DNA of 64,000 nucleotides from Ostreococcus lucimarinus (lineage: Eukaryota): the NCBI GenBank assembly GCA_000092065.1, contig CP000594.1, one strand, 5' to 3'. Below, piece after piece: positions 25,884 through 56,171 of the stretch; positions within the stretch are counted from its first letter, which is position 1; every line of letters starts with the position of its first letter. Under the pieces are notes generated by a model. It was given only the letters and a program-made list of their open reading frames with translations, was not told where the DNA came from and ran no database searches. Position numbers and translations under genes: made by a program.

Positions 25884-25927
25884 ACATGTAGAAAATTTGT
25901 TGTTATACATATACTTGTACACTTTGA

Positions 25928-26548
25928 TTACTGTACGCGGGCCATCCAGTTTGCAGGCGGTGACCAGGTTGTCACCGCCGCATGGTGATCTCTCTGGTCT
26001 TTAGGTGGGCAAGGCCCCATAGCCAAAAACTTCAAAGAACTACTATATTCCAGCGTGTCCAGTGCTTCCACATTGCGAAGCTTTTCGTCATCTCTTTTTT
26101 CCACCAACACGCAGAATTCATTTACTTCCACTGCCCAGGCCTGGCCGGTGTTTCTTTCTATTTTGTACATGCCGGCTCTGCATTGGAGGCCCATATTGAA
26201 AAGCTTAGCCTCGTTGACTTGCTAACAAACTTTCTCAAATGCCTCTACCATTTTCGGCGGTGTGCAACCCACCGGGAAGCGTATAGCAGACCAGCATCGG
26301 ATCGTTTCACAAATGGGCCACCCCCCCATGTCCTTCAGTGCGCCGTTCAAGATATCTACAAGCTCGATCGCCACGGGTGAGTTTCTCGACCAATCTGGGT
26401 CACGGGCACGCATGTAGAGAGGCGACGGCGCATGGGTTTTCAGCAGGGGGGCGATGCGCCAGGACGTGAAGTCGTGTTTCCCCTGAACTTGAAGAACTGC
26501 GAGCAGGTCGGGGTGATAGAATGCTGGGGTGCTCAGGCAACAACCCAT
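25928..26548 (-). CDS. Hypothetical protein with an N-terminal MGCCLS motif (consensus for N-myristoylation plus palmitoylation). The reading frame is interrupted by one in-frame TAG at 26222-26224.
   Basis: ATG at 26548. A TATA box (TATATAAAG on the minus strand, 26687-26695) lies ~140 nt upstream. The same frame continues after the TAG into ORF 25928-26194. No family recognised. Confidence 0.35.
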
Positions 26549-26686
26549 GATGCGCTGTGTTTCTTTTCTCGGCCACGCGCGCGTTTTCTTTTGTCCGCCT
26601 CTCTCTCGCGCGCGCGTCGTCGAGTGATGCTGGTGCCGCTCGTGACGGATTTAAGGGCGTGAACACCCGCGTGTAAAAGCAGACAC

Positions 26687-26695
26687 TTTATATAG
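26687..26695 (-). promoter_or_regulatory. TATA box for the MGCCLS gene.
   Basis: TATATAAAG on the minus strand, about 140 nt upstream of the ATG at 26548. Confidence 0.4.
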
Positions 26696-26756
26696 CACTT
26701 TGGGAGGTTAAAAGGTGTCCCAAAGTCTCATACATTGGCCTATACTTTGGCAACAT

Positions 26757-26794
26757 CCCGCGCTTTGATTACTGTACAGTAATCAAAGCGCGGG
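26757..26794. promoter_or_regulatory. Perfect 38-bp palindrome cccgcgctttgattactgt|acagtaatcaaagcgcggg in the ~340-bp divergent promoter between the MGCCLS gene and the 2OG-oxygenase/DOMON gene.
   Basis: Exact reverse-complement symmetry. Its 15-nt core ctttgattactgtac recurs at 25922-25936, followed there by gcggg. Confidence 0.5.
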
Positions 26795-26889
26795 ATACCG
26801 TGGAATGGACTCGGAAAAACCTCTAGAAGTTCGGCGGCGCCATTCCGCGCGCGATCTCAGCGGGCGAGCGTGATCACCAACGTGGACCG

Positions 26890-28959
26890 ATGAGGCACCG
26901 ATCGTACCGTGTATGCAATGGACGCACGCTCGCACTCATCGCGCTCGTCGTGCTTGTCGCACGCACGCAGCGCGTCTTCGCTTCGCCGACCGACGAGCGA
27001 AGATTCTGGACGCCCACTGTCGTCGCCGTGGACGACGGCGTCGGTTCGAAGATCCGACGCATGGGAAACGATGTGGAGAAATCGAAGTCTTTCGTGTTTG
27101 AGAACACGGTAGCGGAATCGCTGACAAGAGATGGCGTCGTCGCGGTGCGAGTGCGAGGCTTGAACGAAGCAAAGACACAGAGCGCAAAACTCTTCATGGA
27201 TTGCGCGCGGGTTACGGATAATGTTGCAGTAGAAGAGTACGACGATGGATCCAGGCGCGTGACGCTCGCCACGACGACGAAGCAGAGGGGGAGTGGTTTC
27301 GGGGAACCCACGTCCAAAGCATGTAAGAAGTTCGAGGTCACGACGAAAATGCTTCGCGCGAAAGTTTCTGTGGCCGAACAAGCAATCACGGACGTGTTTC
27401 AGAGCAAGTTTTCAGATCTGAGTGAATTTGCGAACGGGGTACTGATGCAGGGAGAGAACGGCGAGACCTATAAAACTTTCTCGGAAGTATTGAAAGACTG
27501 CGAGCACCTTGAACATTTTCACGGCTACACGATTTCACCACAACAAAAATTGAAGAATAGTAAAGTGCGGACGATCGAAGAGCACACGGATCAAGGTCTA
27601 CTCATCGCATTCGTCCCGGCCATAATTGTCGATGCAGTGACGGGAAGGCGCGATAAGTTTTCCTCAACCGGCGATTTTTATATGACGCTTCCTGGGCATC
27701 GCAAGGTGCTTCTCCATTTTGACACGCTTCCAGACGATGTCGTTATTTTTATGCTGGGTCAAGCAATCGAGCAACAAATCACTCCCAAACTTGCAAACGG
27801 CCTTGAGCTTCACGCTGTACCACACGCAATGGATATGCCCAATCTTAAATCTAATCAGTTCAGATTTTGGTATGGGCGAATGTTCCTCCCACCTGAGAAT
27901 GCCTTGGACGAAAGCCATGGTCTCTCTTTTGGGACAGTGCGCGCTAACATCATCGAAGATTTCGCACGTGGGCTGAAGACATCCGTGGGATGTGGTCGTG
28001 AGCTCCTCTCCGTGGCAGGGAGCGGTTCATGCGCTAGCAACCAGATATGGTGCTGGATGCGATGCATGAATCACTCAGCGCCGGCGAGCAATCCACTCAC
28101 ATGCAGGACGGGTCATAGTGTCCAATGTTTGAGCCAAAGACTGGAAGTCTGGACGGATGCCGACAGTCATGGTGATTATAATCCTGGATGCACCGACGAG
28201 ACCAACGAGACAAAGCCCGTCACCGATCCACCGACCATCCCAGCTCGAGCAGCCTCTTGTACAGATGGAAACGCCTGGGAAACTTTTTTGAACCACTCCG
28301 AATATGAAAACAGCTTGGAGCTGTTACAAGATAAGTTATATTTACTCTGGACTGTTCAAAATGGTAAGTTAAAAGCCCGAGTTGCCTTCAATGGCAAGAT
28401 TGGTTGGTTTGCTCTCGGCATCAAAAACCTAGGAGGGAAACACAACGGGATGAACGGGGCGAACATCGTCATGGGCGTCCACGACCCTCATCCAATGGGT
28501 CACGACAGCAATTTCGGTTCTCCTTATGTTGGAAAGAGCAGTGCGAAACAATACAAAATCCACGATCATTCTTCTGCTTTTCGACATTGGAATGACACTG
28601 CTGACGTTGCCTCACCCTTCGTGAGTTCGACGACGTTCAATTCATGTTTCAGTTGTATGCGTTTCGAGACGGCCTCGATACGGGGCGAGGCTCTGAATCT
28701 CACCTCTGGTATTAATGAACTCATCTGGGCTGCTCATGATGGCACTTACCTCAAAGGCTACCATGAAGTACAAGGATTCGATCGGAGAGATGCACGCGGG
28801 CATCTCACGCTTGACCTGACGCGAAATTACGGTCGTGTAACGTGCGGCTTCTCAAGAGGCTGGGCTGCGGCGAGTCAAACATGTGCTTTTTCGGCAGCAA
28901 GCACTCCTTCAGCGATAGTTTCTATATCCATTGCTGTCATTGCAATCCTCGTTATGTGA
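26890..28959 (+). CDS. Secreted, membrane-anchored fusion of a 2-oxoglutarate/Fe(II)-dioxygenase-like domain and a DOMON domain. Has a signal peptide and a C-terminal hydrophobic tail (GPI or TM).
   Basis: Signal peptide MRHRSYRVCNGRTLALIALVVLVARTQRVFA. H-x-D...H motif (EEHTDQGLLIAF ... LELHAVPHA) typical of 2OG-Fe(II) oxygenases. C-terminal DOMON-like region (LYLLWTVQNGKLKARVAFNGKIGWFALGIKN...LIWAAHDG). C-terminal tail AIVSISIAVIAILVM. Confidence 0.6.
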   Translation: MRHRSYRVCNGRTLALIALVVLVARTQRVFASPTDERRFWTPTVVAVDDGVGSKIRRMGNDVEKSKSFVFENTVAESLTRDGVVAVRVRGLNEAKTQSAKLFMDCARVTDNVAVEEYDDGSRRVTLATTTKQRGSGFGEPTSKACKKFEVTTKMLRAKVSVAEQAITDVFQSKFSDLSEFANGVLMQGENGETYKTFSEVLKDCEHLEHFHGYTISPQQKLKNSKVRTIEEHTDQGLLIAFVPAIIVDAVTGRRDKFSSTGDFYMTLPGHRKVLLHFDTLPDDVVIFMLGQAIEQQITPKLANGLELHAVPHAMDMPNLKSNQFRFWYGRMFLPPENALDESHGLSFGTVRANIIEDFARGLKTSVGCGRELLSVAGSGSCASNQIWCWMRCMNHSAPASNPLTCRTGHSVQCLSQRLEVWTDADSHGDYNPGCTDETNETKPVTDPPTIPARAASCTDGNAWETFLNHSEYENSLELLQDKLYLLWTVQNGKLKARVAFNGKIGWFALGIKNLGGKHNGMNGANIVMGVHDPHPMGHDSNFGSPYVGKSSAKQYKIHDHSSAFRHWNDTADVASPFVSSTTFNSCFSCMRFETASIRGEALNLTSGINELIWAAHDGTYLKGYHEVQGFDRRDARGHLTLDLTRNYGRVTCGFSRGWAAASQTCAFSAASTPSAIVSISIAVIAILVM

Positions 28960-29210
28960 CGCGGAAGTTTGCATTCTTCACGATCTTTCAATCGACACCC
29001 GAAACAGTCTGAGCACGCACCGACAGTCACGCCGTTGTAGGTCCCGGCGTGATAACAGAACTCTTCGCTTGATGCGAGTGCGTTCGTGCTCGCGTACGCA
29101 CTCGAAACGGTGCAGTCGGCGTGAGAGAAACACACGTCGCCCGGGTCCGCGCGCGCGGTGTGCGCGACGGCGAGAGCGAAAACGAACGGCACGAGGAGGT
29201 TCTGAAACAT
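28875..29210 (-). CDS. Candidate small secreted cysteine-rich protein. Its 3' end overlaps the C-terminal coding sequence of the convergent oxygenase/DOMON gene by 85 nt.
   Basis: ATG at 29210. Signal peptide MFQNLLVPFVFALAVAHTARA, then 8 Cys in ~70 aa. Could be spurious. Confidence 0.25.
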   Translation of the reverse strand: MFQNLLVPFVFALAVAHTARADPGDVCFSHADCTVSSAYASTNALASSEEFCYHAGTYNGVTVGACSDCFGCRLKDREECKLPRHITRIAMTAMDIETIAEGVLAAEKAHV

Positions 29211-29345
29211 TTTTGGTGTGGGTTTAGCTCGCGAAAAAGTTTCAGCGAGGCTTGACGTGCGCCGCAAAGTGAGGTTCGGAGATCCGGAGATCCGCCGGTT
29301 GACGCCCCGCGGGGCGTGTGTGCCAGCCCGTAGGGTTTAGGGGAT

Positions 29346-29437
29346 CGGACATATGGAGCCTCACTATTAAGACACACTGTCATATATATTAATGGATTTA
29401 TGACAGTGTGTCTTAATAGTGAGGCTCCATATGTCCG
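29346..29437. repeat. Hairpin-forming inverted repeat: perfect 39-bp arms (29346-29384 and 29399-29437) around a 14-nt AT loop. Imperfect arm extensions reach ~29300-29466 (shared ccccgcggggcg).
   Basis: cggacatatggagcctcactattaagacacactgtcata and its exact reverse complement. Confidence 0.85.
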
Positions 29438-29703
29438 ACCGCGGGCACACATCCCCGCGGGGCGCCAGCAGGGTCAGGTCGCAATTTTGCGTTTTCCCGC
29501 TCAGCCTTCACTAGAAACGTGTCTAAACCGGCCACTTTTTAAATCTTGTTTTTTGCTAGGTTTTTACTGTCTCCGGGTCTCGGAGGAATCGCGTGGAGTG
29601 ACCGGTTATGGGTTTAGTGGTTGGAGGTCCTGTGAGGAACTTTCTCTCCGTCACTTTTTTTCCATTTTTGAAAAAAAAAACGTCACATGTAAACTTTATA
29701 AAT

Positions 29704-29729
29704 AAACCTATAACCTATAACCTATAACC
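29704..29729 (+). repeat. (AACCTAT)n heptamer microsatellite, about 3.7 copies.
   Basis: aacctataacctataacctataacct. Confidence 0.8.
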
Positions 29730-29862
29730 TTGAAGGTTGAAATTTCTTAAGACCCGGGGTCCGCTGTTAAGGGGGGTCGGAACGCACAGAGAAATCGGGC
29801 TCGTCGTCCTGTGTATCAGCAGTCCTGTAGTAGGAAGTCATTTTTTGCTGTTTTGGGCATCC

Positions 29863-30172
29863 CTTGCGTTCAGAGATTCCATTCTGAAGAAATCTTAAGC
29901 GAGGGCACCAAAAACTCAAGGTCTCAACGGTCGCACGCTTCAGACTAGTTACATCTTCTGTACCTCCAAGCAGCGAAGTGCTCCTGTGTGTCAGGTTTGT
30001 CTCACCAAACACCGAGATCTTCGAGAAGACGAACACGTTCCGCTGAGAGTTTGCACGTGCACCTGTCTTCCTTTGCCTGATTTGTGAGCCATCACCCCAG
30101 ATTTGAATGTGGCGTATCTTATCGCGACACTCTCGCTTAAGATCTCTTCAGAATGGAATCTCTGAACGCAAG
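29863..30172. mobile_element. MITE-like 310-bp element bounded by 41-bp terminal inverted repeats with one mismatch. It is nested inside an imperfect outer inverted-repeat pair (29793-29829 and 30313-30357).
   Basis: TIR-L cttgcgttcagagattccattctgaagaaatcttaagcgag at 29863-29903. TIR-R at 30132-30172 is its reverse complement (a/g mismatch). No internal ORF. The surrounding context is an AT-rich, low-complexity intergenic region. Confidence 0.5.
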
Positions 30173-30996
30173 CCGTGGATGTATTAAACTGTGAACGAGG
30201 CTAGTCATGGTTCGATTTTTTGGATTACAAGTGTAGGTCTACTTTTACGTTTCGTGGACTCCGCTTGAGTCGGCCGATGTCACCACGTCAGGTGTTTCGA
30301 GTGCACTAGAGACGTGACCGCCGATACACAGGACGTCGAGCTCGGCGTGCCTGATTTCACGACTCGGTGACCATGGTTTGAAACCGAAATGACCATCGGC
30401 TTCAGGCCCAGGCGCGGCCGCAATGCTACTTTAAACTTAATATATTTTTTTTGAAAAAAGAGTAGTAAGAGTAATAAAAATAAACTTTTTTTTTGAGTTG
30501 GGGCACCCCAACATGATAAAACCGCACATCGCGGCGAGCCATGCGCGACCATCAATTTGATGTCATGTCTAGTCAGGCTCTCGTGGTAAAAACGTAAGAT
30601 GTGCTTATTACAGCATATGCCAATTGCGCAGTAAATCTCGAAGGACGACATCAAACATATCACAGAGCGCGCGCTTCACACCGTACAACACCATCTAAGG
30701 TACTTTCGACCGACGTTTTAGGCAATTTTGACTCGCCGACTGGTCTTTTCCAGTTGTGACGTCAGATTCGATACGATACTGGGTTACGATGCGTTGAGTT
30801 GGACTGTAGAGGCCTGTACCCTTACATGCACATCTTCCATGGAGCGCTGGAGAAAAGGCATTGTTGCATAATTATTGTCAAAATATAGATATTTTAATTT
30901 GACGCCACCATTATTAACTTTAAAATCAAGCCAGATCGCGACGACACTGAACATTTGAATGTGTATTCACACTTGAGAGACACTGGTTTCGGCAAC

Positions 30997-31980
30997 TCAC
31001 GATCGAGTACCGAAGACAAAATTAGCGCACTTTTTTCTATCATCTGCAGAATGCGAGTTTGGCGCATTTTTTACTGCGTCGCAGTGTTTCTTAGCCGCTT
31101 TGCACTGTTTGGAGCAGACATGCGGACATGCTGCCACCCAGGTTGGGTTGGAACATAGATGGCGCCTGCCTTCCGGCTTGCCGCAGCCCCGCGGAATCGA
31201 TTCACAGGGAGCCATGTTGGGTAGATCAGGCGTTTCCCAGACGGTACCAGAGATACCATCGAAACCTGGGCACGTGTAATCGTCACTCAGAGTACAGCCA
31301 GTCGCCGCCGAGCCTTGACAAGATCTTTTCCAACCACCCAAACGCCTATGGCCCTTTGTACGCTTTTGGCAAGTACCCGTCGACACGTTGTACGCTTGTT
31401 TAGCTTCCTTAGTATCAAACGAGTGACACACGCATGAATCAATCAGTGGCAAAGCGCGGACCTGTACGGCCGGCTCATGCTCGCACGCCCAACACGAGTG
31501 TCCTCCAATACTGATCCCGAACCGCTGGCGCATCTCTGACGCGCAGACTTTCGCGCGTTCCTCCTCGTTGAGCTCCATTCCCGCGCAGGCACAAGCGCAC
31601 TGTGCACGCGACCACTCCACTCCATCTGTCGCACCAACATAACCTCTCATATCATTCTCCAGTTGGGCGTGTTGGTCGTGGCATATTCTCGCACACGCCG
31701 CGAATGTCTTCATAGATTCTGGTAGTCCGTAGTGCACCGCGGCCTGGGACACCGCGTCGTCATCCATGAGTTTCCACCCCGTGACCCCCGAGCTCACTGG
31801 CCGCCGCCGCCGCCCGAGCTCACTTGACGGTGCATCCAAATCACCGCCCGCATCGCCTGGGTCCGTCGCCACCGCCGTGAACGGCGCATCCGCGTCAACG
31901 CCCGCGGCGACGTTCAGCGCCGCGGCCCCCACGAACAGCGCCAACGTCAAAGGTGACACACATTGCCTTCGAAACCCCAT
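30997..31980 (-). CDS. Secreted cysteine-rich hypothetical protein, about 327 aa.
   Basis: ATG at 31980 (MGFRRQCVSPLTLALFVGAAALNVAAGVDA, a signal peptide). About 30 Cys in clustered patterns in the C-terminal half. The listed ORF starts further upstream at a non-ATG codon. Confidence 0.45.
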   Translation of the reverse strand: MGFRRQCVSPLTLALFVGAAALNVAAGVDADAPFTAVATDPGDAGGDLDAPSSELGRRRRPVSSGVTGWKLMDDDAVSQAAVHYGLPESMKTFAACARICHDQHAQLENDMRGYVGATDGVEWSRAQCACACAGMELNEEERAKVCASEMRQRFGISIGGHSCWACEHEPAVQVRALPLIDSCVCHSFDTKEAKQAYNVSTGTCQKRTKGHRRLGGWKRSCQGSAATGCTLSDDYTCPGFDGISGTVWETPDLPNMAPCESIPRGCGKPEGRRHLCSNPTWVAACPHVCSKQCKAAKKHCDAVKNAPNSHSADDRKKCANFVFGTRS

Positions 31981-32270
31981 CCCGCGCGCGCGATCTGCTT
32001 TTTCGTCCACGCGGCGTCCACTCGCGAACGCGCGGATACCGTTCGCTCTCTCAGCGCCCTCCACGTCCGATCGGTTCGGAAGTGACGCGCGCGCGCAGAA
32101 TAGTTTCGCGTCACAACGCAATTATTCATTCCCGTGTTGATTTTATTCTATTCCAGGGGGTATGGGTATAGAGTTTACAGTGCCTTCGTACGAGATATTT
32201 CCCAACACCCTTTAGTACCAAAACCTAATTGCGTATCTTCCCTCACTTTCCGACGTCACGCGCGCACGCG

Positions 32271-35200
32271 ATGACGTCGGCGACGCCGAAACGACGGCGC
32301 GCGCGCAGATTTTTGTATGCGTTCGGAGGACCGACACTCTTATTTAACCTCATGCGCGTGTTTGCCATGTCCGGGCTCGTGGCAACAATTACAATGTCAA
32401 CAGCCGCGGGCGCCGCCCACGGTGGAGGTGCGAGCATGGACGAGGGACCGGCGCAAATGCATTATATGCCTGATCGATTTCGCAGCCTCGCGGGCGGCGG
32501 CTGGCTTACTATCTCATCGAGAGACGTGCACAAGAGCCTGATGCCCATGCCTGGGATGCGCGGTGGCGGGGAAGGCGCGAATGAGTCAGCAGTAAGTGGC
32601 AGCGCGATGAAGGACGAGGTGAAGATCGATCTGGCCCACGGTGACCCAGACGGTGAGCGATCGTGCGATCTCGTGCATTACAAGTCATCCTCGAATGAGT
32701 TGGTGTGTTCACCACGTGCGGTGGATTGCTGTTTGGACGGACTCACGGCGCAGGAGCTCGCCAGCGTAAGCGATGGGTGCCCGTCGGTGAGACCAGAGCT
32801 GAACGTCGAGGTCAACGGTCAGCGATTGACGTGGGGCAGCGCTGGTAGAAATGGAAGGGACACGCTCACGGACGAAAGTCTCAAAGTGAGCCATGGGCAG
32901 ACGCCGACGATCGTGGCGGTCGAGCCGGCTGAGGTTCGTCCCGGTGAGTTGATCACGGTGTACGGACGAACGTGCTTTGGCGATGTTTGGAAGAAAGATG
33001 AAGATGATGGTTCGTCTCTACGTGATGATCCCGACGCACTGCGAGATCTATTCTCGGTTGAAGCGAGCGCAAGAGAGGATCCGCGCCAAGAAATTGGATT
33101 GGAAAAGTCTCTCTACAAGGTGCTCATCGGTGACCTACCGTGCGAGGTTCGAGATCCACTCACAAACAGGTACTACCGATCCGAGCGCGGCGATGGTCCA
33201 TACACAGCCCACCGGCAAACAGAGTGTGGACCCGTTAACGGTTGGTTTCAGTGCCGTGTACCCCAAGACATCGATTCCGGTCTTCATCTACTTCATTACG
33301 AGACGTACACCAGAGGCAATGCTGTGATCCTGTCTGAGGCGCTCAGATGGAATGCATCGGACGCGTCCAAGGGCTACGTGCTGTCAGTGGTTGATGATAA
33401 GTCGGAAGATGAAGATCCACCGCGTGTTTATAACATAACGCAGCTCTCGAAGGATGAGTCCAAACAGCGACTCCTTGTTGAGGGTGCGTCTCTTGATGCG
33501 CCAAATATCGTCGTCGAGCTTGACGGGGAGCGCTGTGGTGGAAAAAAGGTTGTGTCCAGATCTGGCATCGAGGTTGAATGCTCAGGTTCAGCTGGAGCGA
33601 GCTCGCAGTATCACTACGGCCCCCCCGCGTGGCTGCGTGAAGACTGGGTGTTCAAGGACAAGAATAATAAGTTTGTCGGTGGCAAAGCGTGGTCTAACGC
33701 TCTCCACGTTTTGAAGCAGCGTGGAGAAAGGTACAACCCTCTCGCCGACGAAGTCATGGACGCTTTAAGCTCGGCATTGGCAACGAATGGCATTGTCCGC
33801 GGGTACAAGATCGAGAAAGTTCAACAGTATCTCACGAGCCCATCGGTTGGATCACCATATGTTGAGGCAACTAGCGGCATGAAAGCGGCGCACGCCGGAC
33901 TCATCCGTCACCGAAGGATACGGAATGCTGTGTTTGAACGTGTAAGCGGAGTCATCACCGCCAAAGCAAACGGGCGAATGCGCGTGGCGATCGCCAATGC
34001 GGCGGGCAATAACATGGTGCTTCGTGTGCGACATGTTTCCGACAACTTAAATGTATTCAAACCTTGGTTGTTAGTTTCCAAATTTTGCGGCACCAGATAC
34101 AGCAGACAAAACATTTATCGATACGGCTTTTCACAGTGGTTCAGTGTTCGTGGTAACGAAAAATACTATATGGAATTTCTGATGAACTTGGACCCCAGAT
34201 ACTTGCACAATTTCGGGGGATTCGATGTTAAGATGGAATTTTCCTACGACGCGGGTAATCCTGCGGGATCAATTGGGCAACTTACGCACACGACAACGCC
34301 TCACGTGCCCAAACGAGCGCATGGTGGCGATTACGTCGTGCGCTTTAGCGGCGCTTCGAAAACTGCGATCAGATTCGCTCATAATGCAACTTCTTCAAGA
34401 AGCAATTTTGAGTGGAAACTCTTCAGTGGCGGCAAGACCATCGAGTTCAATACGAAGAATTGGTTGCATGCACGCGAACACGTGCGGAAAGTTAGAGACG
34501 CTCTGCGATGGGCTAACTGTACCGCGCTGCCTGAAGACTCAAAGATGTGGGACGCGGACTCGACCCATTCTTCGCACCCATTCGACGTCGAGAATCGATG
34601 GCTCATGGTGCGTGATACGCAGACCTTCAAAGAGCCCACCACAGATTGGAACTTCATATGGCAACGTCGCATGGGCGGATTCAGAGGCGCGTCGATCGAC
34701 TGGAGTACCTCGTACTGTTCGACACACAGTCAAAAATTTGATTTGTCGTCACTACCCCCAGGAAGAGTCATCACTCCTTCTTCTCATTTCGACGTACCTG
34801 CATCTTCTCGTGCGACGACGAATAAGTTTCTGAACTTTGCCTACAAAGTCACTCCGGGTACGCGAGCGACCTTGTTACTTCGTCTAAAGTACCGAAGCGG
34901 TAATCGGGACATATCGACCACGTGCGCGGTTCTCCTCACCCATGAACAAGCGACTGGGAACGTGAAGAACTTCGATCACCCAGCGTGTGTGGACCTTCGA
35001 AGCGTCTTCAAGGATGATGGAGAGTGGCACTTTATTTCATTCGATTGGCGAACTGCGTTGGCCGGTGGTGAGTATGCCCCGAGTTATTTGGGCGAGGCTA
35101 TGTTCCCGCATAAAGTGCAAGTTCAACTCGATGGTATCGGTGTCGGCGCGCAGAGATTCCTCGGCAAGTGTCCGAATAAACAGCGCTTAGCGGAAATGTA

Positions 35201-38200
35201 TGTCGGTGATGAAGGAAGTGAACTGCGCGGTTACCTCTGGTTGGATAGCGTTTCTGTGACACAGGAACGCTACTCTCCTCAACGAGTCGAGACGCCCTCT
35301 GCACAGCTCGGAGGTATGCAAGAAGGCGTTCACGCAATCACAGATATTGAATATTCGGTCATCAGCCGAAGCGATGGCTCTAAGTGCAAATCGCTGTCGG
35401 ACTGTGATATCATCGTGAGCCTGCGTCAGGTGAAGAGATGCATTGATGCGCAGTCGCGAGGCGATTTCAATATTTCGCCGATGGTGATGTCACAGACGAG
35501 TCCAAACCCGCAACCCGCGACGGTCTCGTGTGGTCGTCACTATGCAGCGAACTGCTCGACTTGTCCGTGGAAGGTGTCCGCGGAAGGTGTCCGTGGAAGG
35601 TGGATGGGCTGGAAATATTGCAATGGTGCGTGCGAATGGAGATGGCACGGGCGTATCAATGCAGGTGGCACGTGCGTGTCAAAGCCAGCTCCAACTCCTC
35701 CGGCAATAACAGTCACGGATCGTACTTCTTCAACACGTGGAACCGTCACTGCACAGATCACAGGGGGGACGATGACGCAATTTTCCACCTCTGCCAATTC
35801 ATCTGAAGTGCAGGACGCATTACGTCATGTCCTCGGAGCGCACGACGGAGGCTTCGTGGTGAGTCCAAGCATGGATTTGTTTGATGCGTGCGGTGTGAGC
35901 GCTCATCGCATGCGCGTTGCGCATGCGAGCGATCTCGAATCGATCCAAGCGCGGTACAAAGAAGTCGTCAATGGTGTGCCCCTGGGAATGCTACCGAAAT
36001 CTTCCCGAGGCCGCACTGCGGAAAATGACGCAGGTCTCCTTAATATAACTGTGAATGTCTCAGGCGGCCTCGCTGAGATAGTCGCGACAGACGAGTCGAG
36101 CGATTTCATCGGTATGGTGCCCCTGGACACGAGAACAGATCTCGATGTGCGCGCCTTGATTCGCGGTGGCGACGCCGTGTTGGCGACGGCTGTTGTGACG
36201 GATGGCGACACAGTCGTACCATGTTCTGTCTCACCTGACCGTATGTCTGCGACTGGCTTCAAACAAGTTCCGAACGGGCAGGCATTCGTTGGCGATGCTT
36301 CTTGCCACATCATTGTGCCACACGAGGAAGTTGCATCTGACGCGACCGTGCACGCTCCGACGGAGTTGAATCAGGATGGTTTTCCCTCACTCGGTGAGTC
36401 CGTGAGTCAATCGAGTCCGACAGACCAGAAACGTCGACGGGACGTCGAAACTATCCGTCGGCGCAGCATGTCAAACTCGCTAAAATTTCCTGGCCATGAT
36501 ACCTGGGCAAAACGAGATCTATCGATGAGTAGATCCGATCTTGGACGATTAACAGTCACAGTGGTTGGTTTTGGTGCGCGTGTGCACAACGGCGCCGCGC
36601 ACCGTAGAGCTGCGAATCACGCGCGGAAACTGTTGAAAACGGAACTCGTCGCGAAGGATGCAGGTCAGGGGAGTCTCAACAATACGAAAAGCAAGTATGA
36701 ATTTCCGGCGGGCGCGGGTCGATTCAGTGATCCATCGACGTGGGGTCCTCGGGGAGTGCCGGACCAAAACTCGACGGATATGCTCTTTATTCCTGCCGGT
36801 TTCAATCTTACTCTGGATGTCGCCGATACGTACTTCCGCGTGTGGGTGATTGAGGGGCACCTAAATTTCCAACGGGGCATGAACATCACGATGCAAGCAG
36901 AAATGATCGTCATCAACGGCGACGACGCACACTTTAGCATTGGGAGTGAAACACGTCCCTTTGAAGATCAGGCGAATATCATCATGCACGGTCACTGGCG
37001 ATCCCTCGGCTTGCCCAAATATGGGGTGAAGTGCATCTCACTGACGAGCGGACGATTAACATTCTATGGTCAGCACGTCACGCCTTGGATGGAACTGGCC
37101 ACTACGGCTTCAGCTAACGCAAACGTTATTTCCGTCAGAAGCAAGGAAGGCAAGACTCCAGATCTCGCCGGATGGAAACCGGGTGCGAGTATTGTGGTGA
37201 CGTCAACCTCTTACGGGGACAGGAGATGTCGGCAAAACCGTACAGACGACTGTCAACCCGAGGAGCGCGTTATTGAATCTGTCACTCCTAGAGGCAACTT
37301 TGCGGACATAACTCTCGATCGACCGTTGAAGTATGAACATTTGGGTGAATCCGTGAATGTGGCGGGAAGCCCCCGCGGGGCTACGATTGAGCGTCGTGCT
37401 GAAGTAATGCTTCTCACGAGAAATATCAACGTGCGCGGCACGACTGAACACAATGGGTATAAGCTCGTCGGCTTTGGCGCGCACACTATGATGATGTCTG
37501 GTCAAATGGTGTTGAAAAATGTTGAATTCGGCCCAAACGTCGGACAGGCCTTCCAACTGGGTCGGTATGCCATCCACTACCACACGCCCAATGAAAAGAT
37601 GTTCAAATATGGTTTGACAGCCTCAAATGACCCGAGGATGCAGGGCGCAGACCAGCGCTTGAGTCGTGTGGAGGGAGTCTCGGTCCACCAATCAAACAAC
37701 CGTGCGATCGCGGTGCATGGTTGTTATCGACTGAACATCATTAACAACGTCGCGTACAACATCTTGGGACATGGGATGTTCGTTGAAGATGGTGTGGAAA
37801 TGTGGAACCTCTTCAAGGACAACGTTGTTTCTCTAGTGCATCGCTCTTTCTCTCTTTTGAACACTGATCAAACACCTGCAGCGTTTTGGATATCGAACGC
37901 TAACAATTTCTTCATCGGTAATCGAGTGTCATCGAGTAATCATCATGGATATTGGTTTGACCCACCAGGAGGACCTACCGGACCGTCGTCGCGAACGCTC
38001 ACGGGGCCTTTGGAAATCCAAAAATTAAGCACTCGGAAGGTACCGCTCGGCCAGTTTGAAAATAACAGAGCCCACTCGAATGGCCACTCCGGACTTTGGA
38101 TTGATCAAATAAACACGGTCTTGCAGCAAGGCGGCAGGCTCAGAATGTACATGGTCGGTACCCACGTATGGAACAATGGAATCAACGGTTTCGGAATGAT

Positions 38201-41200
38201 TACCGGCGTTGGGCATCTACAGATTGTGAATACGTTTGCCATGGGCAACGGGATTGACATCATGTATATCAAGTCGACTGGTGCGACGTGGGCGATGCCG
38301 ACGAATGGTTGGTCCGGTAACTTGGTGTACAACGCCACCCTTCGCGGTGACCCGAAACGCAATACCCAGGCAATCGGCTGTCCGCACGGCGGATGGGTAA
38401 CATTTAACGATATCCTCATTAGTGGCTATCAAAGTAGGTTGCCCCCAATACACCACTGCGCTGTGTGTCCGGGTTTCAAAGGCGGCATGGAAGTTCGTTT
38501 CATGAATATGAAATTCGTCGACAGTGATACAAGGCGGCTCCGCGGTGGTTCAACATCTCGACCGCGCGTATTCTGGAACGGGTACAACTCCAACCTTTTG
38601 CTCGACGTGGATGGGACCCTGAGTGGATCGCCAGGTCCACGATGGGCGCATTCAGTCAAGGGCGCCAGTGATGATCCCAGGAACCGGCCGACGGGTCATT
38701 TTCCGCCAGAACACTGCACCCTCAATGATCACATCGGAGGTGTTGTTTGCGACGCCAACACTGTGTCGTTGCGAGAGGTGCAGTGGCGCCGTATCAAGCC
38801 CATGACCCTTATACCCATGGCGATGCAGACAGCACCTGATCAAAATGCAGGGCAAGTGAACTTTTATCATTACGACCATATCGAGCGACGTTTCAATTGG
38901 CGTACGACATTGGTTATGGTTAAAAGTCCGAACGCGAAGCCATACATCCATAACTTTACGTTTAAGTTTAAAACATGGCAAATTGATGACCCGGACGCTT
39001 GGTACATGGAGGTCCGTGAGCTTCAGCCCAATGAATGGGCTATAATGCGATTCCCCACACTCCGCAATCCGTGGCGTTGGAACTTGAATTCAAGAATACC
39101 GACGGTCACATTGAATAACTACAATCAAAGTGATTATAGTTTCAATGAGAGCAAGGCCATCACCACCACGAGCAACGAATGGCTGAGTTGGAAAAATCAC
39201 AAGTTCGGCGACCACACATACCTACCCGTTGTGGAGACAAGGGATGTTAATGTAAAGCCAGATCCAGGGCTGCTCGATATCATGATATCTGGCAAGCGCG
39301 AACAAGGATGGACACAATCGTACGCCCTCGGTGCCAACTATGATGGCGCGCGTGAAGATATGCCCGTCTGCACCACTTCATGCGGAAGCTCGGCAAAGTC
39401 AACATGTGGCATGAAACGCTACAACTGCAGACCGGGCGACAAGAAACGATGTTTGCCGATGGAAAAGCCTGCAAACTGCTTCGACAATCGACCTATACCC
39501 GAGGTAGATCCCGAGCCTAAAACTTTTTCCTGGTGCGACTCAAACGAAGTTTGGTCTCCGCCGGCATTCGGGGATGACGTCATGATCAAGGCTGGTTGGA
39601 CGGTCATCTTAGATGAAACCTGTCTGGTGACCAACATAACTAGACACGTGGATTTATATGGGTCCCTGTTGCTTCGTGATCCAGGCGCTGGTAAAACCAT
39701 CAAGTTCCGAGCGCAGACCATCCACGTCGCGGCTGGGATTGGATACCTCGAAGCTGGTGACCAGGATGATCCGATATCGAATGGCGACGTTCGTATCGAG
39801 CTTTATGGGAACAGATTTTCTAACGCTCGAATGGGCTACGGTATGGAGACAAAGTACATCGCCGTTCTCGGACACCTCAGCCTCGTCGGAAAGGCGAGCG
39901 TGGAGCAAACGTGGTCGACGCTTAGAAGCGATGCGCCCGCGGGAAGCAGTACAATTGAAACGACAGCCTGTGGCGGTTGGAATACTGGCGACACGCTCAT
40001 GATTGGTGGCGCTATGCACAATTGGACCGGGATCAAGCATGCTTGGTTTTTGAGCGCGGAGCGCTGTGATATTTCCTCCATAGCAGTTGCGAGCGAAGGT
40101 TGCGTCATACGGTGTACTTCCAGCTTCAACTACACGCACTCAGGCCCGGCCCAAAAGCACGAGGTCAGTTTTGGTGGAATGCCAGTGACTCTCATGCATA
40201 GGCGCTCTCCAGGTGGGCGCGTGCAGGTAGTTGGCATGGAAGACAAAAACAAGGCACTGGCAGAGCAGCACTATGGTGCTGTTATTACTATCCTGAAACC
40301 GAAAAAGAAAGGCTATGACGCAAAATTGGCTAAGAGATTCAAGATAGAACTCAAGACGCCCGAGCGCATGCAAGCGGCAACTGAAAGCATGAAACATGAT
40401 CCCCCGCCTGAATGCCACCGCAGACAAGGTTCGGCTGTGATCGTCAATGTCAACTTTGCGCATTGCGGTCAGCGGCACTCTAGTCGCGCGTGTGTTTCTT
40501 TTGCCGCCGGTATTGGCGCTGAGTATCGAGCTACGTTCGCAGAAACGACATCGATGGCACTCGTTGCGAACAACACATTTGCGGACGCCTACAATTTTGC
40601 CGTGAGCGCAGCAGGAGATGGAATTATTATAGAGAATAACGCCATCGCACAAACCTATCACGGTGGATTCGAGGTCTCTGGTGCGAACAACACAATGTCT
40701 AATAACGCAGCTGTTCGATTATTCGACGATGTTAGTGATTACTTTCACGACATTGGGTCGGTTGGTTTCAAGTTGTCGGGATCAGGGAAATGGTATACTA
40801 ACGTCGTCGCCTCCGTGCAGTACACTGGGTTTAAAATTCCTGGATATCCGTGCGAAATGATGACTCCAGACGTGGAGGATGAGGGTTTAGACGTTCGCGC
40901 TGTGACCACCGTTCCCGCCGAACCTACAATGCGTGACCTTCGCGCGTATGGTGGCATGGTAGGCGTGAATCTGCGGGGCGGGCGTACTCGGATGGTCACA
41001 CGTGAACCGGTGGAGGCCTACGCGCCGCTCGAGTGTCGCCAATGGAGCGACTTCGAGATTCGTTCAATGGTTTGGTACGGCGTAACCACGTTTGGTCAGG
41101 GAAAAACGTCTATTGTGTTGAAAAACTTTAATATTTGGGACACCGGACTTGGTTTCGCGCTGTGGATGGTCAACGGTGGCTCAGCCGCAGGTTCGAGCAG

Positions 41201-42095
41201 CGAGCGAGGGCATTTCGCAGAAATCAGTGACACGACGATAATCGGTTCTGCAAGTCGATGTAGAAACGACGGCATTGGGTTTCCCGCGTTTTACTTAACG
41301 GCAGAACCGTACCGGCCGGATCAAGGAGTGAAAACGCCATCGCGCTTTGGTGGAACGACGCTAAGAAACATAAGGTTTCGCGATTTCGGCGCATGTGAAA
41401 AGAAAGGCGTTCGTCAAGTTCGTCAAAAGAATTACGCATTGGTGAACGCCATGAACCGTGGGCGATACGCGTGGGTTTACTACGACAACGCGAACCCCGT
41501 GCGATCTTCTGGCTTGAGCTTTAAGGGTGTACCATTCGAAAACAGGTTACTCATGATCCATCCAAGCTGGGGTCGAATAGGCAATGGGAAATGGGGCTGT
41601 GCCCAAATGTACTGCGACGGACATCGCAACACGTTTGTGATGGATGAGGACGGTTCGCTGCTCGGTGATAACGCCGCATTCGGGACCATCTTGCCCGAAA
41701 ACGAGATTGGTTGGTTCAAGAAACTGGCCTATATCGATCCGCTCAGCCGTGACATTCTTGAAGATTTGGTTCCATTCACACACCAGTGGCTGCCCAACGG
41801 TACCAAACTGACGCCCATGCGAGGGAAGCTCTACGACGAGCCAGGCCATCTCAAAATGGGCTGTCGAAAGGAGGCTTCATGGCAGGCGTGGCTCTGTCCC
41901 GAACACAGGCACAGGCAAATAATCCACGAAAGTTTGGACGGCGATCACACGAAGAGGCGCATCTCCCCAACTTCTGTTCTCACAGAGCTACCATCTCAGA
42001 GCAAGCGTTTCATGTCTCTGTACACTGGGCCTGCGAAATACGGAGGAAACTCCTCGACCGAGGGCAATAACATCCAAGCGCTCGATCGAGGCTAG
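32271..42095 (+). CDS. Giant PKHD1/fibrocystin-TMEM2/CEMIP-like cell-surface protein, about 3274 aa, single exon. N-terminal signal anchor, IPT/TIG domains, two G8 domains and two blocks of PbH1 parallel-beta-helix repeats.
   Basis: IPT/TIG-like segments (~32895-33330 and 33420-33600). G8 domain 1 at ~36700-37080 (W-G-P-RGVP...PFEDQANIIMHG...YGVKCISLTSGRLTFYG) and G8 domain 2 at ~39520-39900 (FSWCDSNEVWSPPAFGDDVMIKAGWTVILDE...). PbH1-like repeats at ~37440-38350 and ~40500-41300 (NNVAYNILGHGMFVEDG..., NNTFADAYNFAVSAAGDGIIIENNAIAQTYHGGFEVSGANNTMSNNAAV). First ATG at 32271. The listed start at 32229 is TTG. Confidence 0.75.
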   Translation: MTSATPKRRRARRFLYAFGGPTLLFNLMRVFAMSGLVATITMSTAAGAAHGGGASMDEGPAQMHYMPDRFRSLAGGGWLTISSRDVHKSLMPMPGMRGGGEGANESAVSGSAMKDEVKIDLAHGDPDGERSCDLVHYKSSSNELVCSPRAVDCCLDGLTAQELASVSDGCPSVRPELNVEVNGQRLTWGSAGRNGRDTLTDESLKVSHGQTPTIVAVEPAEVRPGELITVYGRTCFGDVWKKDEDDGSSLRDDPDALRDLFSVEASAREDPRQEIGLEKSLYKVLIGDLPCEVRDPLTNRYYRSERGDGPYTAHRQTECGPVNGWFQCRVPQDIDSGLHLLHYETYTRGNAVILSEALRWNASDASKGYVLSVVDDKSEDEDPPRVYNITQLSKDESKQRLLVEGASLDAPNIVVELDGERCGGKKVVSRSGIEVECSGSAGASSQYHYGPPAWLREDWVFKDKNNKFVGGKAWSNALHVLKQRGERYNPLADEVMDALSSALATNGIVRGYKIEKVQQYLTSPSVGSPYVEATSGMKAAHAGLIRHRRIRNAVFERVSGVITAKANGRMRVAIANAAGNNMVLRVRHVSDNLNVFKPWLLVSKFCGTRYSRQNIYRYGFSQWFSVRGNEKYYMEFLMNLDPRYLHNFGGFDVKMEFSYDAGNPAGSIGQLTHTTTPHVPKRAHGGDYVVRFSGASKTAIRFAHNATSSRSNFEWKLFSGGKTIEFNTKNWLHAREHVRKVRDALRWANCTALPEDSKMWDADSTHSSHPFDVENRWLMVRDTQTFKEPTTDWNFIWQRRMGGFRGASIDWSTSYCSTHSQKFDLSSLPPGRVITPSSHFDVPASSRATTNKFLNFAYKVTPGTRATLLLRLKYRSGNRDISTTCAVLLTHEQATGNVKNFDHPACVDLRSVFKDDGEWHFISFDWRTALAGGEYAPSYLGEAMFPHKVQVQLDGIGVGAQRFLGKCPNKQRLAEMYVGDEGSELRGYLWLDSVSVTQERYSPQRVETPSAQLGGMQEGVHAITDIEYSVISRSDGSKCKSLSDCDIIVSLRQVKRCIDAQSRGDFNISPMVMSQTSPNPQPATVSCGRHYAANCSTCPWKVSAEGVRGRWMGWKYCNGACEWRWHGRINAGGTCVSKPAPTPPAITVTDRTSSTRGTVTAQITGGTMTQFSTSANSSEVQDALRHVLGAHDGGFVVSPSMDLFDACGVSAHRMRVAHASDLESIQARYKEVVNGVPLGMLPKSSRGRTAENDAGLLNITVNVSGGLAEIVATDESSDFIGMVPLDTRTDLDVRALIRGGDAVLATAVVTDGDTVVPCSVSPDRMSATGFKQVPNGQAFVGDASCHIIVPHEEVASDATVHAPTELNQDGFPSLGESVSQSSPTDQKRRRDVETIRRRSMSNSLKFPGHDTWAKRDLSMSRSDLGRLTVTVVGFGARVHNGAAHRRAANHARKLLKTELVAKDAGQGSLNNTKSKYEFPAGAGRFSDPSTWGPRGVPDQNSTDMLFIPAGFNLTLDVADTYFRVWVIEGHLNFQRGMNITMQAEMIVINGDDAHFSIGSETRPFEDQANIIMHGHWRSLGLPKYGVKCISLTSGRLTFYGQHVTPWMELATTASANANVISVRSKEGKTPDLAGWKPGASIVVTSTSYGDRRCRQNRTDDCQPEERVIESVTPRGNFADITLDRPLKYEHLGESVNVAGSPRGATIERRAEVMLLTRNINVRGTTEHNGYKLVGFGAHTMMMSGQMVLKNVEFGPNVGQAFQLGRYAIHYHTPNEKMFKYGLTASNDPRMQGADQRLSRVEGVSVHQSNNRAIAVHGCYRLNIINNVAYNILGHGMFVEDGVEMWNLFKDNVVSLVHRSFSLLNTDQTPAAFWISNANNFFIGNRVSSSNHHGYWFDPPGGPTGPSSRTLTGPLEIQKLSTRKVPLGQFENNRAHSNGHSGLWIDQINTVLQQGGRLRMYMVGTHVWNNGINGFGMITGVGHLQIVNTFAMGNGIDIMYIKSTGATWAMPTNGWSGNLVYNATLRGDPKRNTQAIGCPHGGWVTFNDILISGYQSRLPPIHHCAVCPGFKGGMEVRFMNMKFVDSDTRRLRGGSTSRPRVFWNGYNSNLLLDVDGTLSGSPGPRWAHSVKGASDDPRNRPTGHFPPEHCTLNDHIGGVVCDANTVSLREVQWRRIKPMTLIPMAMQTAPDQNAGQVNFYHYDHIERRFNWRTTLVMVKSPNAKPYIHNFTFKFKTWQIDDPDAWYMEVRELQPNEWAIMRFPTLRNPWRWNLNSRIPTVTLNNYNQSDYSFNESKAITTTSNEWLSWKNHKFGDHTYLPVVETRDVNVKPDPGLLDIMISGKREQGWTQSYALGANYDGAREDMPVCTTSCGSSAKSTCGMKRYNCRPGDKKRCLPMEKPANCFDNRPIPEVDPEPKTFSWCDSNEVWSPPAFGDDVMIKAGWTVILDETCLVTNITRHVDLYGSLLLRDPGAGKTIKFRAQTIHVAAGIGYLEAGDQDDPISNGDVRIELYGNRFSNARMGYGMETKYIAVLGHLSLVGKASVEQTWSTLRSDAPAGSSTIETTACGGWNTGDTLMIGGAMHNWTGIKHAWFLSAERCDISSIAVASEGCVIRCTSSFNYTHSGPAQKHEVSFGGMPVTLMHRRSPGGRVQVVGMEDKNKALAEQHYGAVITILKPKKKGYDAKLAKRFKIELKTPERMQAATESMKHDPPPECHRRQGSAVIVNVNFAHCGQRHSSRACVSFAAGIGAEYRATFAETTSMALVANNTFADAYNFAVSAAGDGIIIENNAIAQTYHGGFEVSGANNTMSNNAAVRLFDDVSDYFHDIGSVGFKLSGSGKWYTNVVASVQYTGFKIPGYPCEMMTPDVEDEGLDVRAVTTVPAEPTMRDLRAYGGMVGVNLRGGRTRMVTREPVEAYAPLECRQWSDFEIRSMVWYGVTTFGQGKTSIVLKNFNIWDTGLGFALWMVNGGSAAGSSSERGHFAEISDTTIIGSASRCRNDGIGFPAFYLTAEPYRPDQGVKTPSRFGGTTLRNIRFRDFGACEKKGVRQVRQKNYALVNAMNRGRYAWVYYDNANPVRSSGLSFKGVPFENRLLMIHPSWGRIGNGKWGCAQMYCDGHRNTFVMDEDGSLLGDNAAFGTILPENEIGWFKKLAYIDPLSRDILEDLVPFTHQWLPNGTKLTPMRGKLYDEPGHLKMGCRKEASWQAWLCPEHRHRQIIHESLDGDHTKRRISPTSVLTELPSQSKRFMSLYTGPAKYGGNSSTEGNNIQALDRG

Positions 42096-43349
42096 GAGCT
42101 CGAGCGCTTGTTCCACCGCGGCGTCTCCGATGGCGTGCACGGCGATCTGAAGACCCGCTGCGTCCGCGAGAGTGGCTTGCTTGCGCAAAATTTTCTCTCT
42201 TTTACCTCTGGGGTACATCAAATGTCCAGACGTCGACCCGTCGTCTAGATACGGCGCCATCATCGCCGCGGTTCGCCCGCCCAAGCTACCGTCGAGAAAC
42301 GCCTTGACGCCGCCCAATCGAACCCGAGAAGCCGCGGTCTCATTCTCTCGCGTCCAACCACTGTTCCACGCGACGTGGGATTGAACGCTTGCCCAGTCCC
42401 CGAGTGGCATGTACGACGTGATGCGAATCGGAAGGTCGCCGACCGCGTCCCATCGCTCGAGCGTCTCAAAATCTTCCCAGAGCTGCGCGTATCCATCCGC
42501 GCCCGCCACCAAGCTCTCGATGTCCCCGAAATCACCCACGGTCGTGATTCCTTTACTGAGTAAGTACTCAAACGCCCGTTTAAACGCTTCATCGCGCTCG
42601 CTCCGCGACCGCTTCGGCACCGCGTTCGACATCGCCGCCGTGGCCAACTCCTTTAGAATCCCAGTCGGCGCCCCCTCGTCGTCCAACTCCACGATCCCAC
42701 CCGCGATCACCGTCTTCGCGCCCGTGATCTTCGCGATTTCCAACGCCGCCTCGCTCGCGAATCCGACGTGTCCGCACGTCCGCGTGACCCACACCTTCGC
42801 TCCGACGAATCGTTCGTCGCCGCGCGTCCACGCGTTCGACGGCGTCTCGCCGCCCCACGACGTCTCGTCCCAACCGTGTCCCAGCACCCATTTTTCCTTC
42901 CCAGCGTCGATCGCTCGCGCGAGGGTCTCTATGAACTCTTCTTTGGACCGCACGCCTCGCAGATCGAGCGCGTCGAGCGCGAATCCGCCCGTGACGACGT
43001 GCGCGTGCGCGTCGACGAAGCCGCTTCGCAGCGCGCGCCCGCCGCAGTCCAACACGACGCCGAATCTCGTCGACGGAACGTCTTCGACGGCGATGATTCG
43101 CCCGTGTCGGGATACCGTGATGTCTTTGATCGCGCCCGCGTCGCCGACGGCGCAGTTCGCGAACGTGGTGACGTCGGCGTCGCGTTCGGCGTCGGTCGAG
43201 TGATGACGCGCGCGAGCTGGACCGGTGGTTTTAGCGCCGTAGCCGAGCGGGCAGGCGGAGAATCGAGCCTCGAACGCGGGCCAGGCGATCGCGAGGAGTG
43301 CGCTCGCGATTGCGAGGGCGAACGCGACGTCGCGGGGGGTCCATCGCAT
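41988..43349 (-). CDS. Amidohydrolase-3 family (YtcJ/LAF3-like) metal-dependent hydrolase with an N-terminal TM anchor. Apparently truncated C-terminally, possibly a pseudogene.
   Basis: ATG at 43349. TM MRWTPRDVAFALAIASALLAIAW. H-x-H metal site (VDAHAHVV), LGHGWDETSW, and ...IAVHAIGDAAVEQALELLAS. After HAIGD, about 40 aa remain and they overlap the 3' end of the PKHD1-like gene. The expected ~150-aa C-terminal part of the fold (RIEH..., GSD, final metal ligands) is absent. Confidence 0.5.
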   Translation of the reverse strand: MRWTPRDVAFALAIASALLAIAWPAFEARFSACPLGYGAKTTGPARARHHSTDAERDADVTTFANCAVGDAGAIKDITVSRHGRIIAVEDVPSTRFGVVLDCGGRALRSGFVDAHAHVVTGGFALDALDLRGVRSKEEFIETLARAIDAGKEKWVLGHGWDETSWGGETPSNAWTRGDERFVGAKVWVTRTCGHVGFASEAALEIAKITGAKTVIAGGIVELDDEGAPTGILKELATAAMSNAVPKRSRSERDEAFKRAFEYLLSKGITTVGDFGDIESLVAGADGYAQLWEDFETLERWDAVGDLPIRITSYMPLGDWASVQSHVAWNSGWTRENETAASRVRLGGVKAFLDGSLGGRTAAMMAPYLDDGSTSGHLMYPRGKREKILRKQATLADAAGLQIAVHAIGDAAVEQALELLASIERLDVIALGRGVSSVFRRPSVQRHETLALRW

Positions 43350-56089: not shown

Positions 56090-56171
56090 CGCATTCGGCA
56101 GGATTTGAACCTACGCACGGAGACCGTATTCGATTTCTAGTCGAACCCCTTAACCACTCGGGCACGAATGC
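56090..56171 (-). tRNA. tRNA-Ser(AGA), type II with a long variable arm.
   Basis: Minus-strand GCATTCGTGCCCGAGTGGTTAAGGGGTTCGACTAGAAATCGAATACGGTCTCCGTGCGTAGGTTCAAATCCTGCCGAATGCG. Acceptor stem 7 bp perfect. Anticodon loop CUAGAAA. Close to animal tRNA-Ser-AGA. Confidence 0.9.

Follow-up and report, generated by a model that had tools for sequence, protein, structure and literature searches.

Does the giant open reading frame (ORF) that we observe on a chromosome of the alga Ostreococcus lucimarinus encode a complete relative of the animal fibrocystins and, if not, where was it cut? The stretch analyzed, hereafter the window, comprises 64,000 nucleotides of contig CP000594.1 (assembly GCA_000092065.1) from strain CCE9901, and the gene in question, called here the G8 gene after its G8 domains, lies on the 708,927-bp reference chromosome. 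An uninterrupted ORF occupies positions 32229 to 42095 of the plus strand, with its first ATG at 32271 and its stop codon at 42093-42095, giving a product of 3,274 residues. A stop-free run of ~3,280 codons at ~52% GC excludes a chance origin, and the single uninterrupted 9.8-kb ORF with this start, which an initial annotation had read from the letters, is real. Our conclusion, which we regard as probable rather than firm, is that the ORF is a truncated O. lucimarinus copy of a giant type I fibrocystin-L (PKHD1L1)-like surface protein, cut at the joint of a tandem duplication.

Annotation as a G8 domain protein predates this work, and algal fibrocystin-L-like proteins are already in the literature, a 2026 review giving green algae to vertebrates as the range of the putative fibrocystin-L orthologues (PMC13424714). 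New here is the incompleteness of the reference copy; the protein itself belongs, as a divergent member, to a known family, and the rearrangement at its 3′ end does not amount to novel biology. Literature searches combining Ostreococcus with G8, fibrocystin, or PKHD1 returned nothing specific. The deposited product (XP_001421255.1 / ABO99548.1, "predicted protein"; UniProt A4S7D5, "G8 domain-containing protein") is 100% identical to the window over 32271-41768, after which its model has a 76-nt GT..AG intron (41769-41844) and a 25-residue terminal exon in another frame, ending at 41919. This intron is probably a modelling artefact, since the wild orthologues all read through 41769-41844 in frame. 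Exact look-ups of the 3,274-residue product and of the amidohydrolase ORF that crosses the downstream junction matched no record.

Truncation of the window copy

More than 40 metagenome contigs carry an orthologue of 3,892-3,965 residues, the same-species alleles being 99.9% identical at the amino-acid level. Both cluster representatives, P0001 (3,892 residues) and P0002 (3,965 residues), continue past window position 42050, and the same-species alleles P0011 and P0012, found on 29 and 12 contigs respectively, have 3,917 residues each. The wild orthologues run ~650-690 residues beyond 42050. We found this extension encoded nowhere in the window, where the ORF ends at an in-frame stop 14 codons after the junction, an end that is common to no wild contig, all of which continue the G8 gene past 42051. 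On a 181-kb genomic contig of a second Ostreococcus species, the gene is one continuous ORF. An intron at 42051 was considered and rejected, because the break shows no GT, the absent exon is nowhere in the window, and the ORF is continuous on the 181-kb contig.

Absent from the window copy are the rest of the fibrocystin-L-type region (its second half), a Cys-rich segment, six SSPRPDVPAPVP repeats, a coiled and basic stretch, a transmembrane segment, and a tail. The only strong transmembrane segment of the intact allele spans residues 3873-3894 and is followed by a 23-residue basic tail. Type I topology is thus seen in the intact wild allele and not in the window copy, which is devoid of a C-terminal hydrophobic segment. 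The six Pro-rich repeats likely form an extended stalk. Being cut at the junction, the window copy has neither stalk nor anchor and retains one half of a conserved domain.

For the orthologue pair L024/L001, the ratio of nonsynonymous to synonymous substitution rates (dN/dS) is 0.25 overall, 0.05-0.15 in the G8/beta-helix parts, and 0.17 for residues 3233-3600, which indicates that the G8 gene, including the segment absent from the window, is under purifying selection. The window copy is most likely a recent by-product, non-functional or at best secreted. For users of the CCE9901 reference, this means that the gene model is truncated, without stalk or anchor, and that its 3′ intron is probably spurious; the intact 3,917-residue form is the one suited to comparative or structural work.

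The place of the cut, junction J2, is sharply defined. The window leaves all of the G8-bearing contigs at 42051 and joins all of the contigs carrying a convergent amidohydrolase gene at 42081, with a short filler in between (Table 1). Ten wild contigs (L007-L013 and L033-L035) diverge from the window at exactly 42081; they show 99.2-99.8% identity, three of them are 271-300 kb long, and they carry an intact amidohydrolase gene followed by unrelated housekeeping genes. As the wild amidohydrolase gene encodes 594 residues, the junction beside the G8 gene also truncates this second gene, and a mechanically called ORF (41988..43349, minus strand) reads across J2.

Table 1 Features of the G8 locus, in coordinates of the window. 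Residues refer to the 3,274-residue product.
Feature	Coordinates	Strand	Remarks
Perfect 42-nt palindrome at J1	26755..26796		Two copies of a 20-nt motif, each occurring singly at the two wild loci joined here
Low-GC block, 15.3 kb	26767..42051		Wild contigs match it at 99.987% identity and differ in both flanks
669-residue protein, hydrophobic C-terminus	26950..28959	+	Sub-threshold DOMON match, E 0.023
Cys-rich 327-residue protein with signal peptide	30997..31980	-	Divergently transcribed from the G8 gene
G8 gene ORF	32271..42095	+	3,274 residues: 5′ 83% of a fibrocystin-L-like gene, 14 junction-derived codons, and a stop
Basic stretch KRRRARR, then moderately hydrophobic stretch	32271..32420	+	Kyte-Doolittle 19-residue maximum 1.61 at residue 22
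Weak traces of 2-3 degenerate IPT/TIG-like modules	32457..33590	+	Residues ~63-90, 212-345, 384-440
Lineage-restricted beta-rich ectodomain region	33648..36710	+	Residues ~460-1480; no known domain in the Pfam scan
G8 domain 1	36738..37100	+	Residues 1490-1610; Pfam PF10162
CEMIP-type right-handed beta-helix 1	37470..38234	+	Residues 1734-1988; PF24606 (E 2e-43), PF13229
G8 domain 2	39555..39923	+	Residues ~2429-2551; PF10162, E 2.4e-19 (segment scan)
Beta-helix 2, weakly detected	40542..40712	+	Residues ~2758-2814; PF13229, E 3.3e-4 (segment scan)
C-terminal ectodomain region common to animal fibrocystin-L, first half only	41484..42050	+	Cut by the junction
J2 filler, 29 nt	42052..42080		Matches neither the wild G8 nor the wild amidohydrolase gene; unique in the window and all fetched loci
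Amidohydro_3 gene, convergent, without its 3′ ~171 codons	42081..43349	-	Pfam profile positions 2-296 of 472

Domain architecture, kinship, and likely function

The order G8, beta-helix, G8, beta-helix, which had been proposed from the translation, is confirmed by the Pfam scan for both modules. PF10162 matches two stretches (E 6.5e-45), CEMIP_beta-hel matches residues 1734-1942, and a Beta_helix match follows each of the two G8 domains. Two CEMIP_beta-hel stretches are found in the distant orthologue P0265. No other Pfam domain of the CEMIP family was found in the window protein, and PA14 (PF07691), present in the ciliate relative P0006, gave no Pfam match in it, even at E ≤ 5 in residues 1-1480. 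Opposite window positions 37621-37623, past the first G8 domain and ahead of the beta-helix, the orthologue of the second Ostreococcus species carries ~390 additional nt (~130 codons; L001, 15147-15539).

The best named database matches are animal fibrocystin-L and a ciliate protein. In phmmer, the protein aligns collinearly with animal fibrocystin-L, module 1 with module 1 and, weakly, the second G8 domain with the second G8 domain, and the alignment reaches past the second beta-helix. More specifically, residues 3045-3437 of the intact allele P0012 match residues 3583-3957 of Holothuria fibrocystin-L (P0004, E 7.6e-37) and residues 3650-3995 of Palaemon fibrocystin-L (P0005, E 1.1e-33), a region of which the window copy retains the first half. 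The only sequence match in the PDB is the TMEM2 ectodomain 8c6i (residues 317-654, E 4e-25, phmmer), and the PKHD1 match is far weaker (E 8.7e-7). The proposed kinship with fibrocystin-L and CEMIP/TMEM2 has therefore held, and it extends collinearly beyond the G8 modules into the C-terminal ectodomain.

P0265 is a full-length orthologue of 4,370 residues with 38% identity along its whole length, so the gene is old in the lineage. Its C-terminus is a hydrophobic stretch without a cytoplasmic tail, which suggests that it may be held by a glycosylphosphatidylinositol-type anchor instead of a transmembrane helix; PPNTGESTPT repeats are present.

Fibrocystin-L is the presumed ancestral member of the fibrocystin family, and the intact algal protein resembles it in its giant size (3,917 against ~4,200 residues), in being a type I protein that opens with a signal peptide and closes with a single transmembrane helix and a very short tail, in the arrangement of its two G8 and beta-helix modules, and in the further conserved C-terminal ectodomain region. 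It differs in that the array of 10-14 IPT/TIG domains and PA14 are undetected, a lineage-restricted region of ~1,450 residues being found instead, in that a stalk of Pro-rich repeats precedes the membrane, and in its host cell, which has neither cilia nor stereocilia; the window copy moreover has no anchor. Fibrocystin/polyductin (PKHD1) has the same G8/PbH1/G8/PbH1 core and overall size (PMC13424714, Table 1), and is thought to be vertebrate-specific, with a 192-residue cytoplasmic tail carrying a ciliary targeting signal (PMC13424714). CEMIP (KIAA1199) and CEMIP2/TMEM2 likewise have a G8 domain followed by a CEMIP-type beta-helix, but they contain a single module in ~1,360-1,380 residues along with other accessory domains, whereas the algal protein has two modules in 3,274 (window) or 3,917 (intact) residues. 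TMEM2 is also anchored at its N-terminus, and hyaluronan, the substrate of CEMIP and TMEM2, is a polymer of the animal matrix.

The N-terminal part departs most from what had been expected. Of the signal anchor read there, the basic and then moderately hydrophobic N-terminus is indeed seen, which we read as a probable signal peptide; a canonical signal peptide opens P0265. The IPT/TIG array is undetectable, apart from weak traces at three N-terminal positions: PF01833 gave zero Pfam matches at E ≤ 5 in residues 1-1480, in a scan whose positive controls, two genuine fibrocystin-L proteins, yielded 14 and 10 TIG stretches. A custom TIG profile scored 1-5 bits at the three positions and hhalign gave ~43% probability over 21-24 columns, while P0265 scored 25 bits at the position homologous to window residues ~384-440. 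These scores allow at most 2-3 degenerate IPT/TIG-like modules. Searching residues 180-1379 exhaustively against 1.84 billion representative proteins returned 26 matches, which were fragments of close relatives and the full-length P0265, indicating that the first ~1,450 residues are lineage-restricted. The N-terminal alignment profile gave only chance matches among PDB sequences. AlphaFold2, run with few homologues, gave unusable models, with a mean predicted local distance difference test score (pLDDT) of 37 for residues 55-470 and 41 for residues 460-1075.

Concerning function, a role in ciliary or scale glycan remodelling had been put forward. Since Ostreococcus is not known to have flagella, scales, or a wall, a role of this kind does not apply to O. 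lucimarinus. Judging by analogy with its domain families, the intact protein would most likely be a membrane-anchored carbohydrate-binding coat, adhesion, or receptor protein, held on its Pro-rich stalk at the naked cell surface. Glycan cleavage is possible; of the polysaccharide binding or cleaving proposed for G8-PbH1 modules, cleaving is weaker than had been implied: hyaluronidase activity was not detected for the soluble TMEM2 ectodomain, and an active site could not be assigned (PMC10206443). It is a rather improbable extension that the protein is the main outward coat or receptor of the naked cell, for example a determinant of virus attachment or mating adhesion, and that this role drives the locus to be a hot spot of structural variation. 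If true, the alga would be a minimal organism without cilia in which to trace what the fibrocystin ectodomain originally did. That a cell devoid of cilia retains an intact fibrocystin-L relative under purifying selection speaks against a ciliary role as the ancestral one of this ectodomain.

Origin of the joint and competing explanations

On the wild contig Ga0527078_0209 (271 kb), both flanks have the orientation seen in the window, with the block containing the amidohydrolase and NAD kinase (NADK) genes lying ~128 kb to the left of the block containing the poly(A) polymerase (PAP) gene. The window shows the order PAP block, G8 block, amidohydrolase block, i.e., tail-to-head, which, set against Ga0527078_0209, points to a tandem duplication with a unit of ~143 kb. 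In the reference proteome, ABO99695.1 is an amidohydrolase with the C-terminal 161 residues that are absent from the window, its first 324 residues being 100% identical to the window copy, and the 327-residue neighbour of the G8 gene has two identical entries, ABO99726.1 and ABO99760.1. For the genes that follow the intact G8 gene on wild contigs, homologues are found on the same reference chromosome, namely a zf-CCHC protein (A4S7K6) and a 636-residue protein (A4S7K7), ~70 accessions after A4S7D5. This suggests that J2 is the novel joint of a ~143-kb tandem duplication in the reference.

We hypothesize that a ~143-kb tandem segmental duplication in CCE9901 would have placed the novel joint at 42051-42081, where the broken G8 gene would have been joined, via the 29-base filler, to the 5′ part of the convergent amidohydrolase gene. 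The uniqueness of this filler argues for a real repair joint. The G8 block would in addition have been inverted relative to the wild contigs at the palindromic motif of the upstream junction, J1; on these contigs PAP and the G8 gene share a strand and lie ~27 kb apart, and the block is inverted in the reference. An intact G8 copy is predicted ~140 kb away on the same chromosome. Two simpler events were rejected. A deletion between neighbouring convergent genes does not fit the wild contigs, which place both genes ~128-143 kb apart and in reversed order, and an insertion of the block into the amidohydrolase gene does not fit the window, in which the 3′ part of that gene and its downstream genes are nowhere found.

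J1 coincides with the centre of the palindrome, contigs with the PAP gene leaving the window at 26776. The ~0.9-kb stretch between PAP and J1 (25845-26777; L043, 8049-8984) is bounded by ~80-nt direct repeats that are 87% identical, and the outer repeat ends in the 20-nt motif that builds the palindrome. A Tc1/mariner-type terminal repeat (TA followed by CAGT...) was considered at J1 and dropped, because the ~80-nt repeats next to PAP are direct and not inverted. An older, diverged version of the head-to-head motif of J1 is seen in L059.

The ORF, its domains and homology, the truncation, both junctions, and the duplicated reference proteins are seen directly, while the tandem duplication, the intact second G8 copy, and the function are what we infer from these comparisons, and several points weigh against the latter. 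The second copy and the 143-kb periodicity rest on protein accessions, and the order of GenBank accessions is only roughly positional. Tandem duplication would not by itself explain J1, for which an inversion is also needed, and a chimeric clone or a finishing error could yield the same local picture. Both AlphaFold models of the 1,450 N-terminal residues were poor, and the function is deduced from domain families, in which TMEM2, the closest relative of solved structure, showed no activity in vitro (PMC10206443).

That J2 (42051-42081) is an assembly or cloning chimera, in which case the strain would have one intact 3,917-residue gene and the end of the window ORF would not be biological, appears unlikely to us without being far-fetched. 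It would account for a joint seen in no wild contig, more than 40 continuing the G8 gene and 10 the amidohydrolase gene, for the cutting of both genes mid-domain, and for duplicated proteins that are 100% identical, as if reads had been used twice; a 27-mer across J2 is also absent from the Joint Genome Institute (JGI) metagenomes, in a scan made without a wild-type-junction control. However, a unique 29-base filler with no shared repeat is typical of end-joining repair and not of a false assembler overlap, assemblers collapse perfect duplications rather than create them, and the intact and truncated amidohydrolase loci are both present in the reference proteome. The initial annotation had itself named an assembly chimera among the outcomes that would overturn it, and this holds in part: the 3′ end of the ORF is indeed created by a joint that wild contigs do not have, be it a rearrangement of the strain or a join made in assembly. 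If the joint is real, the truncated ORF could be a functional, strain-specific secreted form, such as a shed glycan-binding factor or decoy, which keeps the signal peptide and both G8/beta-helix modules, closes with an in-frame stop 14 codons past the joint, and shows no decay (2 mismatches in 15.3 kb against wild contigs). We judge this very unlikely, because near-identity denotes a very recent event, so that the intact frame is uninformative on selection, because the break lies within a region that is conserved between algae and animals and under purifying selection (dN/dS 0.17, residues 3233-3600), and because no wild contig carries this form.

Two further explanations, to each of which we give only the slightest credence, concern the source of the gene rather than its end. 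The G8/beta-helix modules might have been taken horizontally from bacteria, the protein then being a polysaccharide lyase or hydrolase and not a fibrocystin relative; module 1 is matched by bacterial G8 proteins of ~800 residues (Actinomycetota, Gemmatimonadales, Marinimicrobium) with 31-34% identity and 133-181 bits, and the GC content of the G8 gene is below that of its neighbours. Yet eukaryotic TIG-bearing fragments and the ciliate protein score higher (205-217 bits), and a core eukaryotic gene of the window, VPS13-like, is even lower in GC. The bacterial proteins have a single module, without the second module, the stalk, the eukaryotic-type anchor, or the C-terminal fibrocystin-L region over which the match to fibrocystin-L continues collinearly after the two modules. 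The absence of this region from bacterial G8 proteins favours common eukaryotic descent with fibrocystin-L over a borrowed bacterial module. P0265, at 38% identity, and an 89-92%-identical orthologue in a normal high-GC housekeeping context also show a long residence in the lineage. Alternatively, a large low-GC element, either mobile or derived from a virus, could carry the gene as cargo, and this would explain the varied contexts of the gene and the inversion. On wild O. lucimarinus contigs, the gene is embedded in DNA of uniformly low GC (0.47-0.59) that extends over at least 30 kb (L024, 1-4400 and 21800-29618) and also holds Peptidase_S74 (coiled-coil), an aspartic protease, a zf-CCHC protein with a weak GIY-YIG match, Prim-Pol, and DUF5906; the block is flanked differently in the reference, and a short repeated motif makes up the palindrome at J1. 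Against this, the same gene pair lies among housekeeping genes in another Ostreococcus species, with no such neighbours, and the repeats next to PAP that had been taken for terminal inverted ones proved to be direct. A viral origin of the neighbourhood was considered as well, and the two queries used, Prim-Pol and the G8 core, found no relatives among IMG/VR viral contigs. Our preferred reading is an unremarkable member of the known family, present here as a truncated copy.

Composition and neighbourhood of the locus

The G8 block has a GC content of 0.51-0.56, against 0.59-0.73 downstream of 42 kb, and the GC content at third codon positions (GC3) of the G8 gene is 0.57, against 0.68-0.77 in neighbouring genes, in agreement with the AT-richer block already noticed. 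What had been called unusual, namely the low GC and the single exon, is ordinary when the window is considered as a whole. A VPS13-like giant ORF (37-11901, plus strand; 3,954 residues, with Vps62, VPS13_C, and weak Pex24p matches), whose start may lie to the left of the window, is also one long ORF and has the lowest GC of the window (0.47-0.49; GC3 0.51), so that low GC accompanies giant genes here and does not set the G8 gene apart. Single long exons are the rule in the O. lucimarinus genome.

Among the neighbours described before, the secreted Cys-rich protein is confirmed, while the DOMON protein has only the sub-threshold match given in Table 1. The adjacency of the G8 gene and the gene for the 327-residue Cys-rich protein is conserved in the second Ostreococcus species, and this conserved divergent pairing hints that the two proteins may share a role. 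The other genes of the window are housekeeping genes, mostly single ORFs, encoding RRP12, RRS1, PAP, NADK, a WD40 protein, and a photolyase.

Between the genes for the 669- and 327-residue proteins lie two palindromic elements that resemble miniature inverted-repeat transposable elements (29345-29438 and 29863-30172), one with 43-nt arms and an 8-nt loop, the other with 41-nt arms separated by 228 nt. Just downstream of the intact wild G8 gene (L024, 21820-21882) lies a copy of this second element with 93% similarity. The region beside PAP varies among wild strains (L043-L052, L058, and L059), which have either a DUF285 giant gene (more than 2,600 residues, with a coiled-coil C-terminus) or DUF5906 and small genes; on these contigs the Prim-Pol, 395-residue, and 643-residue genes and the G8 gene come after the variable part. 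The only tRNA gene of the window is a tRNA-Ser (AGA) at 56090-56171 on the minus strand.

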